Shown: positions 33,730 to 57,099, counted from the stretch's first letter. The stretch is DNA of 64,000 bases from Sedimentisphaerales bacterium (GCA_963663805.2 CAXXMR010000012.1:384001-448000), one strand, 5' to 3'. Translations and numbers: made by a program. The notes: generated by a model from the sequence alone, not told the origin.

Positions 33730-33804
33730 GGTGAGAGTAGCTCAGTCGGCTAGAGCACCAGGTTGTGGTCCTGGGGGTCGCGGGTTCGAGTCCCGTCTCC
33801 CACC
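33730..33804 (+). tRNA. tRNA-His(GUG), integration site of the downstream island
   Basis: G-1:C73; anticodon arm CCAGG-TTGTGGT-CCTGG; GGTTCGAGTCC; A4:C69 mismatch in the acceptor stem. Confidence 0.95.
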
Positions 33805-33996
33805 CTTATATAATCCTATATATAGCAATAGCTTATGCGGGATTTTCTTTGAACTGGACCCGCCAAATTACCCCCAGATGTGAAAATTACTGTGAAAATA
33901 TCTGCTCACTTTTAATCCGGTAAATCCAGATTTGCATAGTGAAACCCTTTTTTGTAGTGTGTCTGTAAAGAGTGCTCAAATATAGGGTTGCAAAAA

Positions 33997-35022
33997 ATGG
34001 CATCATTAAAATATCACAAGGACGTAAAGAGATGGCGAGTCTTCTGGCATGTCACCCTTCCGGACGGCTCAATCGACAAAGGCAGCAGAAGTTTTAAACT
34101 CAAGGATGAGGGGCAAAAGTTCAAGGAGCATTGCGAAAAACAAGGGGCGAAACTAAAAAGAGCCAGGATAGTCAAGGTTCCTCTATTAGACGACGCGGTT
34201 GAGAGTTGGCGGATATTTATGGGCCAGCATACAGAACGAACCCAGAAGATGTACAGTGATGTATTAAGGGATTTCTTAAAATTTGCTTCTAATGACCTTC
34301 TGGCCAGTGACTTAACATCCCAACATATAATGGGGTATTTGAACTCTCTTATAGCTAGAGGCCTGGGCAATAAAAGCGTGAATAATCATTTATGTGCAAT
34401 TAAATCTTTTTGCGGGTATCTGGAAACGAATTACCAGATTCCCAGTTCCGCAAAAAATATTAAGAAATTCAAAGAGGGGGATATTGATGTCTATTTCACC
34501 AATAGAAATGAATACAATCTGATTTTAGAACATTGCGATGATATCGGTGTTGGCTGGATTAGATTTATCGCAAATACTGGCCTGAGGGCGAGCGAGTTTT
34601 GTAATCTGAAATGGGGGGACTATGATGCTGATGCCAGAACCATAACAGTTATTGGCAAGGGCAGAAAAAGAAGGACGATTGGCTTGAATAATATTGCAAT
34701 TACCGTCCTGGAAGACAGGAGAGCGGGCAAGAAGATAAAACTTAAAGACCATATATTTCTTCGCAAAGATGGTTTGCCATTGATTCGCCATACATTGCAT
34801 TATTTTATCTCAAAAGCCTGCTGCGATGCGGGAGTGACGAGTTTTGGCCCTCACACGCTTCGCCACTTTTTTGCTACTGAGCTTCTTAAGGCTGGGATCC
34901 CTATCATCAAGGTTTCTCAACTCATGGGACACAGCAGTGTTACTACTACCCAAAAACATTACTCCCATATCCTCAGCAGCGACGTTGCGAACGCCACCAG
35001 CGTTCTTGAGGCTCTGGGATAG
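33997..35022 (+). CDS. Tyrosine recombinase/integrase
   Basis: TGLRASE (R), GKG (K), HTLRH (HxxR), MGHS, HY catalytic Tyr; N-terminal arm-binding-like segment. Confidence 0.93.
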   Translation: MASLKYHKDVKRWRVFWHVTLPDGSIDKGSRSFKLKDEGQKFKEHCEKQGAKLKRARIVKVPLLDDAVESWRIFMGQHTERTQKMYSDVLRDFLKFASNDLLASDLTSQHIMGYLNSLIARGLGNKSVNNHLCAIKSFCGYLETNYQIPSSAKNIKKFKEGDIDVYFTNRNEYNLILEHCDDIGVGWIRFIANTGLRASEFCNLKWGDYDADARTITVIGKGRKRRTIGLNNIAITVLEDRRAGKKIKLKDHIFLRKDGLPLIRHTLHYFISKACCDAGVTSFGPHTLRHFFATELLKAGIPIIKVSQLMGHSSVTTTQKHYSHILSSDVANATSVLEALG

Positions 35023-53695: not shown

Positions 53696-55084
53696 ATGCA
53701 AAATGTGGCAGTAAAAATCAATCAGATGCACAGCGGTATGGTAAAAAATACCATCGAAACCGCCCGTAAAATCGGCAAGCTCTTATATGATCAAAAAAAG
53801 GCTTGCGGTCATGGCCAGTGGGAAAAGTGGATTGAAAACAATCTCGATTTCAGCAAATCAACAGTAAAAAGATATATGGATGTTTATGAGAAATATCAAA
53901 ATGACAAAAACGTCAAGTTGAAGGATTTGAATCTTAGTGAATTATATAAGGATGTGGCCAATAAGAAAAAAGCGAAACGCACCAATGAGGATCATCGCAG
54001 CAATGACAAAGCCAGAGCAGTAATTAGAGAACTCTTCGCTAATAGGCAGCATGACTATAATAATCCCCCTAAAGGTAAAGTTTTAAATCAGATCATTAAC
54101 GGTGATACTCTTGATATTATGCGTAAGATGAAATCTAATAGTGTTCATCTCATTTGTACCAGTATTCCGTATAATAACAATCTATACTATGGGCCACACT
54201 TTAACGACAACAGGCCTTATCAAGAGTATCTTGATTGGTTGGGTGAATTTGTTACTCTTTGCTATCGAGTATTAGTAAAGGGAGGAAAACTTATAATCAA
54301 TTGCGATAACATGACAAACAAGGATAGAGATAAAAATGGTGAATTTACTTATCGTCATGCCTTAGATTGCGATCTGCGTTATAAGGTTCGAGAGCTTAAG
54401 TTGGGGCTATTAGAATATCAAGATATTATTTGGTATAAGTATAATAATGGTGGAGCTAAAATTAAATGTTGGGGTTCATACGCTTCTCCTTCTCAGCCAA
54501 ATTTTCTTAACTGTAAAGAGCACTTTATAATTTGGGCAAAAGATACATATAAATTAGAGCAGCCAAAAGGAGTTGAAGCTGATATTACAAAAGACGAATT
54601 TGAAGAATGGACTTATAATGTATGGTCCATTCATCCTAACACAAACATTAATTGCCCTCATCCTTGCACTTGGCCAGAACGTCTAACTGAACGTTTTATT
54701 AAACTTTTCAGTTTTCCAAATCAAGTCGTAATGGACCCATTTTGTGGGAGTGGAACAACTAGTTACTCAGCCAAACAGTTGGATAGGCAGTTTATTGGAA
54801 TTGACCAGAATTCAAACTACAGCCAGTGGGCAAAGGATAGAATTGATGGTAAAGATATGACTATGGTTCTTGCTGAATTTCTGTTGAGCGTAAAATCAGA
54901 ATTGGAAAATAAGTTATCGCCTGAATTAGTTGCTAACAAATACGGTCGGTATTTTAGAATGGCAACCCCCGAAGGGGAAAGGTGTAAAGCAAGAGTATCT
55001 AAATCTGAAACATTGAAGAGGGCACAAACCATAAAGAATACAAATACCCTCTCTAAAAAGAAGCAGAGAAAGGAGGTAGCTTAA
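53696..55084 (+). CDS. Orphan beta-class N4/N6 DNA methyltransferase with DUF3102-like N-terminus
   Basis: IGKLL...GHGQWEKWIE...RYM N domain; TSIPY (motif IV variant) precedes HP..WP and DPFCGSGTT (motif I). Confidence 0.88.
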   Translation: MQNVAVKINQMHSGMVKNTIETARKIGKLLYDQKKACGHGQWEKWIENNLDFSKSTVKRYMDVYEKYQNDKNVKLKDLNLSELYKDVANKKKAKRTNEDHRSNDKARAVIRELFANRQHDYNNPPKGKVLNQIINGDTLDIMRKMKSNSVHLICTSIPYNNNLYYGPHFNDNRPYQEYLDWLGEFVTLCYRVLVKGGKLIINCDNMTNKDRDKNGEFTYRHALDCDLRYKVRELKLGLLEYQDIIWYKYNNGGAKIKCWGSYASPSQPNFLNCKEHFIIWAKDTYKLEQPKGVEADITKDEFEEWTYNVWSIHPNTNINCPHPCTWPERLTERFIKLFSFPNQVVMDPFCGSGTTSYSAKQLDRQFIGIDQNSNYSQWAKDRIDGKDMTMVLAEFLLSVKSELENKLSPELVANKYGRYFRMATPEGERCKARVSKSETLKRAQTIKNTNTLSKKKQRKEVA

Positions 55085-55211: not shown

Positions 55212-55637
55212 ATGTCAAAGGCAAAAAAAAGAATTAGTGGAAGAAATCGGAGAAATTCAACTCAGAAGCAAGATTTCGGATTTGTCGACTTTCCTGCTGG
55301 TGGTGCATTGTTTTATAAAAGCGATAAAGGTAACTGTTTACATGTTTTTGACAACATTGGTTTTATGGCAATCGATATGTCCGGAAAGAGTTTTGAAATT
55401 GAGGGCTTGGTTTTTGATACAGAAAGAGGCTGGTATGATGCAAATGCAGATATTCCAAAATACTACGGCAAGAGCGTATATAGTGCATGTATGGATTATG
55501 CTGTAGATAGAGCAATAAGTGATAATTGGTATTTACAGCTTGCTATATTTGGTAAAAAAAGACCTGCTGAAAGTGCTATGTTGATTAGTTATGACGATCT
55601 CGTGAGTCGTTTAGAGAGTGAATGCTGTTCCGCATAG
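55212..55637 (+). CDS. Hypothetical protein
   Basis: TAAGGAG RBS, 141 aa. Confidence 0.65.
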   Translation: MSKAKKRISGRNRRNSTQKQDFGFVDFPAGGALFYKSDKGNCLHVFDNIGFMAIDMSGKSFEIEGLVFDTERGWYDANADIPKYYGKSVYSACMDYAVDRAISDNWYLQLAIFGKKRPAESAMLISYDDLVSRLESECCSA

Positions 55638-55692
55638 TATTAATTATAACTAACATATACTCACAGCAAACGTTTCGTAGTGTTTTATATTT

Positions 55693-55731
55693 AGTCAGAG
55701 CATTGGCGATATTTCCGATGCTCTGACTTTG
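55693..55731 (+). terminator. 14-bp hairpin, probable terminator
   Basis: AGTCAGAGCATTGG-N8-CCGATGCTCTGACT then TT. Confidence 0.5.
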
Positions 55732-55784
55732 ATGAGAAGTGCTTTAAACTTTTTTCATAAAAACTTTATCTTCTATTTTTTTTG

Positions 55785-55813
55785 TTGGAAAGTGATTAAT
55801 TTTCTGATAGAAT
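55785..55813 (+). promoter_or_regulatory. sigma70-like promoter P1 upstream of the solitary repeat unit
   Basis: TTGGAA-N17-TAGAAT. Confidence 0.55.
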
Positions 55814-55842
55814 ACTCGAAGTCAGGGGTAAACAACTTCTGA

Positions 55843-55874
55843 CATTCTCAACTGATAGTTGAGTGGGTTGAAAT
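55843..55874 (+). CRISPR. Solitary CRISPR-repeat-like unit (I-C-like geometry)
   Basis: CATT-CTCAACT-GAT-AGTTGAG-TGGGTTGAAAT: 7-bp stem + 11-nt 3' handle. Confidence 0.6.
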
Positions 55875-56035
55875 ATTATAATTATCCAGATGAATTTACA
55901 GTATAATATTTTAGTGCTGTTGAACGATGCTCTCTGAAAAGTGAATAATATAAAATAGTCATTAATATTTTATATCTTATTTTTGGATACGAGTTCTAAG
56001 AAAATGTCAAATCATACATTGGACTCATTTTTTCC

Positions 56036-56064
56036 TTGAAAAGTGAAATACATTTTAGTATAGT
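56036..56064 (+). promoter_or_regulatory. sigma70-like promoter P2 upstream of the hairpin/repeat cassette
   Basis: TTGAAA-N17-TATAGT. Confidence 0.6.
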
Positions 56065-56099
56065 AATGTAAGAATAAAAGTTAATATGAGTTTGTTGAG

Positions 56100-56219
56100 T
56101 TGAGTGTTTGCAGTGTGTTCCATCCTGAAGTAAATTATCATGGTAATCATCAATTATTGATGGGATACAGATAGTTTTCTTGATACACCTTCAGTGTGGG
56201 ATACACTGCGAACACTCAA
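56100..56219 (+). ncRNA. Long stem-loop (putative structured RNA element)
   Basis: TTGAGTGTTTGCAGTGTGTTCCA pairs with TGGGATACACTGCGAACACTCAA (23 bp, 3 G-U); inner CTGAAG/CTTCAG and CATCAA/TTGATG stems. Confidence 0.6.
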
Positions 56220-56258
56220 GAAGTTCCTGTAGAATTTGCTATGTATATAGCAAAGATC

Positions 56259-56343
56259 AGTTTCCCCACGCAAGTGGGGGTGTTCCTATATTAGGATGTG
56301 CCAGGGTTTTAGCAAAACAGTGTCCCCACGTTAGTGGGGTGTT
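56259..56343 (+). CRISPR. Type I-E-like mini-array (repeat-spacer-repeat), no cas genes in window
   Basis: AGTTT-CCCCAC-GCAA-GTGGGG-GTGTTCCT, 31-nt spacer, AGTGT-CCCCAC-GTTA-GTGGGG-TGTT; period 60. Confidence 0.78.
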
Positions 56344-56346
56344 AGA

Positions 56347-56516
56347 TTAACATCTATTATAGATGTTTGGGTTGAAACGAATGTGTTTGTATTGCTTGAG
56401 TTAAATACTTAAGTATCTTAGCCATTAAGGTTAAGTGGATTACAGTGATAGTAGTATTACTATGTTTAAACTTAATGTTTAGGCATCTCAGTCTTTGAGA
56501 TTGAGTGGATTACAAT
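56347..56516 (+). CRISPR. Three degenerate I-C-like repeat units with ~35-nt spacers
   Basis: 7-bp stem / 5-nt loop / 11-nt handle ending at 56378 (TGGGTTGAAAC), 56446 (TGGATTACAGT) and 56516 (TGGATTACAAT); periods 68 and 70. Confidence 0.68.
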
Positions 56517-56553
56517 GCTGTAGTGATTGTTGAGTTTGCTAAACTTGGCAGAA

Positions 56554-56590
56554 GAAGCCATCAGATTAATTTCTGGTGGCTTTTTTGTTT
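56554..56590 (+). terminator. Intrinsic terminator closing the repeat cassette
   Basis: GAAGCCATCAGA-TTAATT-TCTGGTGGCTT followed by TTTTGTTT. Confidence 0.8.
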
Positions 56591-56742
56591 TATATTCCTT
56601 GAGCAAAATATTTTAAAATTATCCTCAAAAGGGGCTGATTAGTGAAAAACAAATAATTAAAATATAAGCATGATCAGGAGTAATTGGGTTATTGCTGACA
56701 CAAAAATAATAAAAAGTTCTCATTTTAAAGGAGATTGAGATA

Positions 56743-57099
56743 ATGAATGAGTTTAAATGTGAAGAATGTGGCTCAATTAAACTGGGCTATAAAAAGTATG
56801 TAAAATGCACTATGCCAGTTGAGATTGCTAATGGGCAAATCACCTATGGGCTATCAACAGTTGATGAAGATAATTATTTGGCCACATGTAATGGATTTTG
56901 CTGTATGGACTGTCAAAGTTTGATCGAATACTGTGGCTGTAACCTTGAAACAGAGGAAGAGCTTAGGGGATATTATAACCTGGATCCAAAATTAAAACAA
57001 CAGCAGCAAGATGAATATGATGATATTATTAAGGCTAAAATTGAGGCTCAGGAAGAACTGGGTCGAGATAAGTTATTATATGAAGAAGAATCCGTTTAA
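56743..57099 (+). CDS. Small Cys-rich (Zn-ribbon-like), acidic hypothetical protein
   Basis: AAGGAG RBS; CEECGS and CCMDC motifs. Confidence 0.7.
   Translation: MNEFKCEECGSIKLGYKKYVKCTMPVEIANGQITYGLSTVDEDNYLATCNGFCCMDCQSLIEYCGCNLETEEELRGYYNLDPKLKQQQQDEYDDIIKAKIEAQEELGRDKLLYEEESV

Follow-up and report, generated by a model that had tools for sequence, protein, structure and literature searches.

A candidate RNA anti-CRISPR combining I-E-like and I-C-like repeat units on an integrative island of a Sedimentisphaerales bacterium

Positions 55785-56590 of the window (the whole stretch of 64,000 nt of DNA from a Sedimentisphaerales bacterium that was analysed) probably form a gene for a non-coding RNA, or a pair of neighbouring ones, within an island gained by horizontal transfer. 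With a probability of roughly 55%, we read this locus from its sequence as a polyvalent RNA anti-CRISPR of the Racr or Cracr-array kind. The core transcript would run from about 56070 to 56586 and would carry mimics of two CRISPR repeat types that are both present in the host's order, arranged as an I-E-like mini-unit (the hairpin E1, a 31-nt pseudo-spacer and the hairpin E2) followed without a gap by three I-C-like units, U1, U2 and U3, 68-70 nt apart. Because two CRISPR-type likenesses stand side by side, in the right orientation and with the right periods, on a mobile island without cas genes, an RNA anti-CRISPR is the best supported explanation. The resemblance in sequence and structure, the covariation, the island context and the occurrence of both CRISPR types in relatives are all directly seen.

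The I-C-like units lie on the plus strand. U0 (55847-55874) reads CTCAACT-GAT-AGTTGAG-TGGGTTGAAAT, U1 (56349-56378) reads AACATCT-ATTAT-AGATGTT-TGGGTTGAAAC and has A-T as its closing pair, U2 (56417-56446) reads CTTAGCC-ATTAA-GGTTAAG-TGGATTACAGT, and U3 (56487-56516) reads CTCAGTC-TTTGA-GATTGAG-TGGATTACAAT. The geometry of U1, U2 and U3 is exactly a 7-bp stem, a 5-nt loop and an 11-nt tail beginning with TGG. This architecture and all end coordinates of the three units agree with what a first-pass annotation of the same DNA had claimed, which had missed U0, E1 and E2, the promoter-like sites and terminator, and a paralogous locus on contig C13 of the same genome. The loop of U0 has 3 nt in the window and 4 nt in its C13 copy, and TGG stands directly 3' of the stem in all four units. 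According to the description in PMC8524198, I-C repeats of several species have a 7-nt stem and a 5-nt loop with 2-nt and 11-nt overhangs, and recognition by Cas5c is centred on the U-G-G just past the cut, which is the main determinant.

Next, we compared the units with real I-C repeats. Those of the order read GTCGC..(7-bp stem, ~5-nt loop)..GCG-TGGATTGAAAC and have periods of 64-70 nt, a range that includes the 68-70 nt of U1-U3; in the real I-C repeats of 17 arrays the stems covary while the tail is fixed, as in the U units. The U0 tail is identical at 11/11 positions to that of the real I-C arrays L031 and L080, which end in TGGGTTGAAAT and were found by a metagenome scan with a two-tail pattern, the L031 array adjoining Cas1c (468.9 bits, cut-off 385), Cas2 and a Cas4 fragment. 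The U1 tail matches both real variants, TGGATTGAAAC of the order's arrays and TGGGTTGAAAT of L031 and L080, at 10/11 positions, whereas U2 and U3 agree with real tails at 7/11 and 8/11, their tails departing from these at 3-4 of the last five positions. A C-G closing pair, invariant in 13/13 distinct real I-C repeats, is present in U0, U2 and U3 and absent from U1, and the stems of the U units are AT-rich in contrast to the GC-rich real I-C stems. When the genome was searched with a covariance model built from real I-C repeats (R2), none of U0-U3 was among the matches at E up to 10; local scoring over 2.5 kb with filters off gave 14.2 bits for U1, 12.1 for U0, 4.3 for U3 and 3.6 for U2. Since the model fails genome-wide, it is the geometry, the UGG and the tails that make the units I-C-like, and not overall sequence. 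The I-C subtype proposed by the first-pass annotation therefore stands as far as the anatomy, the UGG and the tails of U0 and U1 are concerned, and falls short in the genome-wide R2 search and in the tails of U2 and U3. The metagenome scan with the two-tail pattern returned 114 matching stretches, about the number expected by chance, none of which had hairpins before both tails, and the best of them formed 11 of 14 possible pairs. Separately, a multi-copy IS-like element (about 10 copies, for example at C12:448871, just beyond the end of the window) contains TGGATTGAAAT; of the 19 matches to the I-C tail motif in the genome, 9 come from this element, all without a hairpin before the motif.

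Upon aligning six copies, comprising five distinct units, we observed that all 35/35 stem cells are paired and that 6 of the 7 pairs are altered on both sides, the units being paralogues, so that these covariation counts are not independent events. The stem sequences differ among all units, and full pairing of every stem would not be expected under neutral divergence. No shuffle out of 500 equalled the stem covariation, and sliding the pairing partner by 1-3 columns left only 21-43% pairing. Between U2 and U3, the compensation reported in the first-pass annotation is present in detail, with pair 3 changing from T-A to C-G, pair 6 from C-G to T-A and a G-T kept at pair 5, and its claim of selection on RNA structure gains support from the 35/35 paired cells, the 6/7 pairs changed on both sides and the 0/500 shuffles. 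To place the hairpins against the chance level, we counted TGGRTT sites that abut a hairpin of 7 bp with at most one G-T pair and a loop of 3-6 nt, the stem running right up to the T. Counting both strands, the 4.75-Mb genome has 5387 TGGRTT sites, 14 of them with such a hairpin, where about 7.5 are expected (background rate 0.0014), and 6 of these 14 belong to the window locus (4) and its C13 paralogue (2). Another hairpin, of 8 bp, abuts a TGGATT within a DUF4190 ORF of the C13 island (G000:C13:319383; L008, about 14383), and lies within the chance number of such sites genome-wide.

The I-E-like hairpins lie directly upstream of U1 in the same orientation, 60 nt apart as against 61 nt in real I-E arrays. 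E1 (56259-56287, plus strand) comprises a 5-nt flank, the hairpin CCCCAC-GCAA-GTGGGG and a degenerate 8-nt handle, GTGTTCCT. It is followed on the same strand by the 31-nt pseudo-spacer (56288-56318) and by E2 (56319-56347), in which the CCCCAC/GTGGGG stem encloses the loop GTTA and the handle is not conserved. The pattern CCCCAC-N4-GTGGGG is found nowhere else in the genome. The real I-E repeats of the order read ATTGT-CCCCAC-GCAC-GTGGGG-GTGAACCG with a period of 61 nt, Cas1e-adjacent arrays being seen in 11 of 13 loci. With a covariance model trained on nothing but 11 real I-E repeats from the order (R1), E1 (56264-56282) is the top match in the 4.75-Mb genome (23.5 bits, E = 0.0033), with 18 of 19 bases matching in the local alignment, and E2 scores 8.5 bits locally, only the stem being in common. 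Over 29 nt, E1 is identical to the 11 real repeats at 20-24 positions and E2 at 14-18, and handle identity is 5/8 for E1 (4/8 against one of the 11 repeats) and 1/8 for E2.

We then examined the pseudo-spacers that follow U1, U2 and U3, all of which contain hairpins. Pseudo-spacer 1 (56379-56416, plus strand) carries a 9-bp hairpin at 56393-56415, pseudo-spacer 2 (56447-56486, plus strand) carries two, the second at 56463-56485, and pseudo-spacer 3 (56517-56550, plus strand) carries one of 8 bp. Real spacers are not expected to fold in this way, and the hairpin pseudo-spacers are the main feature that known Racrs and Cracrs leave unexplained, which could point to a different function. The 9-bp hairpin stands at the same position 5' of U2, of U3 and of the C13 copy of U3; its cells are paired in 27/27 cases, with two pairs changing on both sides and five changing on one side via G-U, and 62 of 500 shuffles do equally well, the comparison comprising three sequences only. 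The first-pass annotation had described the spacers as resembling one another and had taken this as a sign that whole units were duplicated, and both points hold. The stretches 56393-56447 and 56463-56517 form a repeat family, D1, with 71% identity over 55 nt at a distance of 70 nt, and D1 and the C13 allele together support whole-unit duplication. It had also asked whether the spacers match phages, and no pseudo-spacer has a match beyond chance in phages (best E 0.9), in plasmids (best E 3) or in its own genome; nor was there anything beyond chance in 1.7 Mb of collected loci. Looking for the PAM-proximal match of at least 9 bp to a cas or creT promoter that would mark a Cracr, we anchored the seeds of 6 pseudo-spacers from the I-C side and 1 from the I-E side on PAMs in 345 kb of the order's cas loci (20 of type I-C, 9 of type I-E), and they did no better than shuffled spacers; the scope of this seed test is the cas loci of the order, and former hosts of the island may lie outside this sample.

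All units point in the same direction and lie between promoter-like sites and a strong terminator. On the plus strand, the promoter-like site P1 (55785-55813; TTGGAA, 17 nt, TAGAAT, with TG before the second hexamer) is a consensus match common to the window and C13, and P2 (56036-56064; TTGAAA, 17 nt, TATAGT) matches the consensus at 10 of 12 positions. Promoter-like sites are no more frequent in the region than in shuffles, and P1 and P2 are therefore treated as putative promoters. The intrinsic terminator (56551-56586, plus strand) consists of a stem of 15 pairs with a run of T after it, and is the only plus-strand terminator-like site in 55500-56900 and is kept in C13 and in the distant relative L187. 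A leader hairpin precedes U0 (55820-55846, plus strand) in the fold of the C13 allele, the same sequence being present in the window. The fold z-scores relative to shuffles were -6.2 for 56330-56590, -8.5 for the C13 allele and -11.8 for 56070-56590. Between P2 and the I-E-like units, the predicted fold contains a long imperfect hairpin (56100-56219, plus strand) with 31-nt arms that are 84% complementary and 58 nt between them, which is absent from the C13 allele; its best Rfam match, a plant microRNA family, reaches 35.4 bits against a gathering score of 139.7 and is not credible. Rfam found two tRNAs only in the window, and relaxing E to 10 brought up no CRISPR-DR family.

The island that carries the locus has a GC content of 37.8%, compared with 49.8% in the rest of the window, which is flanking chromosome. 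At its end stands a tRNA gene (33731-33804) with an integrase gene beside it (33988-35022), and from the integrase the order of genes is type I restriction-modification, a DUF3800 protein, a DinB-like polymerase and an orphan DUF3102-methylase (53696-55084), beyond which a 141-aa ORF (55212-55637) and the RNA locus are succeeded by a 118-aa ORF and by genes for a sigma-like and a DUF6876 protein. A search over 60 kb for the island ends found no direct repeat of the tRNA of at least 13 nt, no conjugation or phage structural genes were recognised on the island, and no acr gene was recognised near the locus. The paralogous locus on C13 has two units, U0' and U3, the latter 100% identical to that of the window. 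The flanks of the two loci are 99.1% (1901 nt) and 99.55% (3113 nt) identical and the RNA region only 77%, with U3 and the terminator 100% conserved and the intervening sequence at 77%. The window stretch 55884-56425 has no C13 counterpart, which indicates that whole units were gained or lost between repeats in one allele relative to the other. Common to both islands is the module from the methylase to a 139-aa protein, and the C13 island carries different cargo, including TIR, type I restriction-modification and HipA.

In both islands the 141-aa ORF, whose N-terminus is rich in Arg and Lys, is the immediate 5' neighbour of the RNA, and its product might be an RNA partner or an anti-defence protein. 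It has 5 relatives among 5.8 billion proteins, all on short contigs; among the 401 genomes of the order it occurs in its own genome only, none was found in viral contigs or in a collection of genome contigs, and the AlphaFold model has a mean pLDDT of only 46. Just 3' of the terminator is the 118-aa Cys-rich ORF (56743-57099), which is deleted in the C13 allele save for its 3' end and has no family or structure match. For the neighbouring proteins, PDB sequence and Atlas searches gave no usable match. At DNA level, 55640-56740 has no homologues in plasmids or E. coli genomes, and a comparison with 24 genomes of the family returned one 33-nt match only (E = 9e-4). The nearest relatives of the DUF6876 protein, at 71% and 64% identity, are in MAG records labelled Anaerohalosphaeraceae and Phycisphaerae. 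In these two syntenic relatives, L186 and L187, the gene order of 118-aa ORF, DUF6876, 129-aa and 139-aa is kept, with the 118-aa relatives upstream of DUF6876 at 32-36% identity. Neither of them has units, and L187, the closest, retains the terminator only. Synteny being kept while the units are absent, the slot seems to hold variable RNA cargo. We found no homologous locus that retains units outside the own genome, no R1 or R2 match below E 0.9 in 80 DUF6876 loci, and nothing in viral contigs for the sigma-like protein, the DUF6876 protein and the two-tail DNA pattern.

Upon examining the CRISPR content of the order, counting Cas1c (TIGR03640) and Cas1e (TIGR03638) when over cut-off, we found Cas1c in 35 and Cas1e in 13 of 401 genomes. 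Among 24 relatives from the same family, two have real I-C arrays and one has a real I-E array. Two further same-family genomes carry I-E-like units, and Cas1e was found in neither (G015 and G016): one holds a canonical I-E repeat, a 33-nt spacer and a truncated repeat adjoining an integrase-family gene (L269, G015:C237, about 1440-1530), and the other a solitary I-E-like unit with one stem mismatch adjoining a Schlafen-like helicase gene (L270, G016:C50, about 1504-1531). In the own genome, which is 88% complete, no Cas1 or Cas6e was found, and no Cas3 over its cut-off. Searches for Cas5d and Csd1 were also blank, but they were negative in all control genomes as well, so these two blanks weigh little. 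Pfam and PADLOC found no Cas family in 26 and 18 window ORFs, and a 635-aa ORF matches no Cas model. The only CRISPR locus found in the genome is of type VI-B and lies outside the window on C10 (L266, 8300-12601). Its Cas13b is split over three ORFs covering model positions 20-158, 169-468 and 624-901, and after it come Csx28 and six repeats of 36 nt that recur every 66 nt; the effector gene may be broken, or there may be assembly errors. Mimicry of this host VI-B repeat was considered and set aside, local alignment being no better than with shuffles.

Several other known element types fit the locus poorly. A bona fide CRISPR-Cas locus is rejected because the units differ in all stems, the pseudo-spacers are paralogous and no Cas family is present in the window. 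A type V-K transposon repeat, the Cas12k alternative raised in the first-pass annotation, has to be dropped, given that neither Cas12k nor Tn7 genes turn up in the window with Pfam or PADLOC, and that no Cas12k, tnsB, tnsC or tniQ is seen across the island. A ToxI-like type III antitoxin is countered by the divergence of the units and by a downstream 118-aa ORF that is without family match and missing from the C13 allele. Readings as an integron attC site or as a single-strand promoter find no integron integrase or conjugation genes, and there is no ToxN-like toxin either.

The real I-C and I-E arrays of the order (L126-L156, L031, L080) share with the locus the stem, loop and tail geometry and the UGG, the CCCCAC/GTGGGG stem, and the periods of 60 and 68-70 nt, whereas here there are no adjacent cas genes, the units are non-identical, the handles are degenerate and the spacers are related and structured. 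Racrs against I-C and I-E have been experimentally shown to work (Camara-Wilpert et al. 2023; PMC10651486). As in the Racrs described there, we find repeat look-alikes on a mobile element, outside any CRISPR-Cas locus and without cas genes, with their own promoter-like site (a consensus match). Unlike the solitary units of that description, the units here are tandem, with array-like spacing and two subtypes per putative transcript; their stems are strongly diverged and AT-rich, and they reside on an integrative island, not on a phage or plasmid. Cracr arrays of 2-3 units against I-C and I-E are described by Liu et al. in the main text of a preprint (bioRxiv 10.1101/2024.10.29.618823), which also reports that degenerate repeats in such arrays lead to aberrant processing. 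Stacked degenerate repeats with short spacer-like inserts are common to those arrays and the present locus. In contrast, Cracrs are defined there by spacer complementarity to cas or creT promoters, of which none was found here in the order's cas loci, and the arrays are of a single type, whereas here I-E and I-C are mixed and the pseudo-spacers form hairpins. A mimicry-type RNA anti-CRISPR is thus already known, and a mixed I-E and I-C transcript would be a new form of it. In that preprint's main text, co-encoded Cracrs are always of one CRISPR type, so that a mixed transcript would be a new variant; the absence of mixed arrays from print rests on that one sentence of the preprint (10.1101/2024.10.29.618823).

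Among the competing explanations, the main rival is a structured island RNA unrelated to CRISPR, such as an sRNA with a regulatory role or one that sponges an island-encoded protein like the 141-aa protein, in which the likeness to repeats would be convergent or left over. It holds this rank because of the structured pseudo-spacers, the 56100-56219 hairpin, which has no CRISPR counterpart, and the lack of targets in the present host, where no I-C or I-E genes were found. A hairpin is present in every segment, the "spacers" included, and the module is conserved together with the 141-aa ORF. We still consider such an RNA unlikely, as two independent likenesses, to types that both occur in the order and with the right orientation and periods, are hard to obtain by chance, and no Rfam family matches. 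We regard as improbable that the units are regulatory crRNA-like RNAs of the Cracr type, whose guides would pair with cas or toxin promoters so that Cascade shuts its own genes down. The array-like layout, the crRNA-sized periods and the 2-3-unit Cracr arrays on record for I-C and I-E (main text of 10.1101/2024.10.29.618823) all speak for this, and mutually similar pseudo-spacers would suit guides against variants of one promoter. However, the seed test on the 29 cas loci of the order gave nothing above shuffled spacers, the pseudo-spacers fold on themselves, and the two types are mixed here, whereas the co-encoded Cracrs of that preprint's main text are always of one type.

The spacing and orientation would also fit a working orphan mini-array that borrows the host's Cascade against competing mobile elements, and mobile elements are known to carry mini-arrays, as reported in PMC10651486. 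Every stem differs between the repeats, as do the tails, the pseudo-spacers are interrelated and self-folded, and spacer searches gave nothing beyond chance (E of at least 0.9 in public phage and plasmid collections), which makes this very improbable. Least probable of all is a functionless, decaying relic of I-E and I-C arrays. Degenerate handles and the lack of cas genes, in cis and, for I-C and I-E, in the genome, would agree with it, but neutral decay would break stems, and here 35/35 and 27/27 cells are paired despite many substitutions, while the two alleles agree at 100% in U3 and the terminator but at only 77% in the intervening sequence. Where the first-pass annotation preferred mimics to a decayed array, the full pairing of every stem thus favours the same choice.

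Under the preferred reading as an RNA anti-CRISPR, we infer transcription, binding and cleavage by Cas proteins, and inhibition. When the island enters a cell with I-E or I-C, Cas6e would bind and cut at the E hairpins, and Cas5c would bind and cut at the base of the U stems, just ahead of the conserved UGG. Processing of this kind would yield pieces the size of crRNAs, 60 nt on the I-E side and 68 and 70 nt on the I-C side, equal to real repeat-plus-spacer periods. With their degenerate handles and self-folded pseudo-spacers, these products would tie up the Cas proteins that process crRNAs or form the backbone, in competition with real crRNAs, which would lower interference against the island. 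Given that no I-E or I-C genes were found in the present host, the RNA would be idle cargo there. A further proposal, which we hold to be speculative and probably not correct as a whole, is that one transcript disarms two Cascade types, that the pseudo-spacer hairpins evolved to stop Cas7 from polymerising after Cas5c or Cas6e has docked, trapping dead-end sub-complexes, and that the diverging, covarying stems escape recombination with each other and with host arrays.

If the locus were not an anti-CRISPR, it would still be a clean case of selection on RNA structure in a duplicated element. Most positions (stem letters, loops and pseudo-spacers) vary between copies, but not the stem shape or the UGG, a pattern equivalent to a natural mutational scan of the features that Cas5c requires for recognising a repeat, and compact decoy RNAs against several types could serve as off-switches for type I CRISPR tools. 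Overall, if the reading as an RNA anti-CRISPR is true, RNA anti-CRISPRs would not be limited to the phages and plasmids of well-studied phyla, and they could be stacked in one polyvalent transcript against several CRISPR subtypes.
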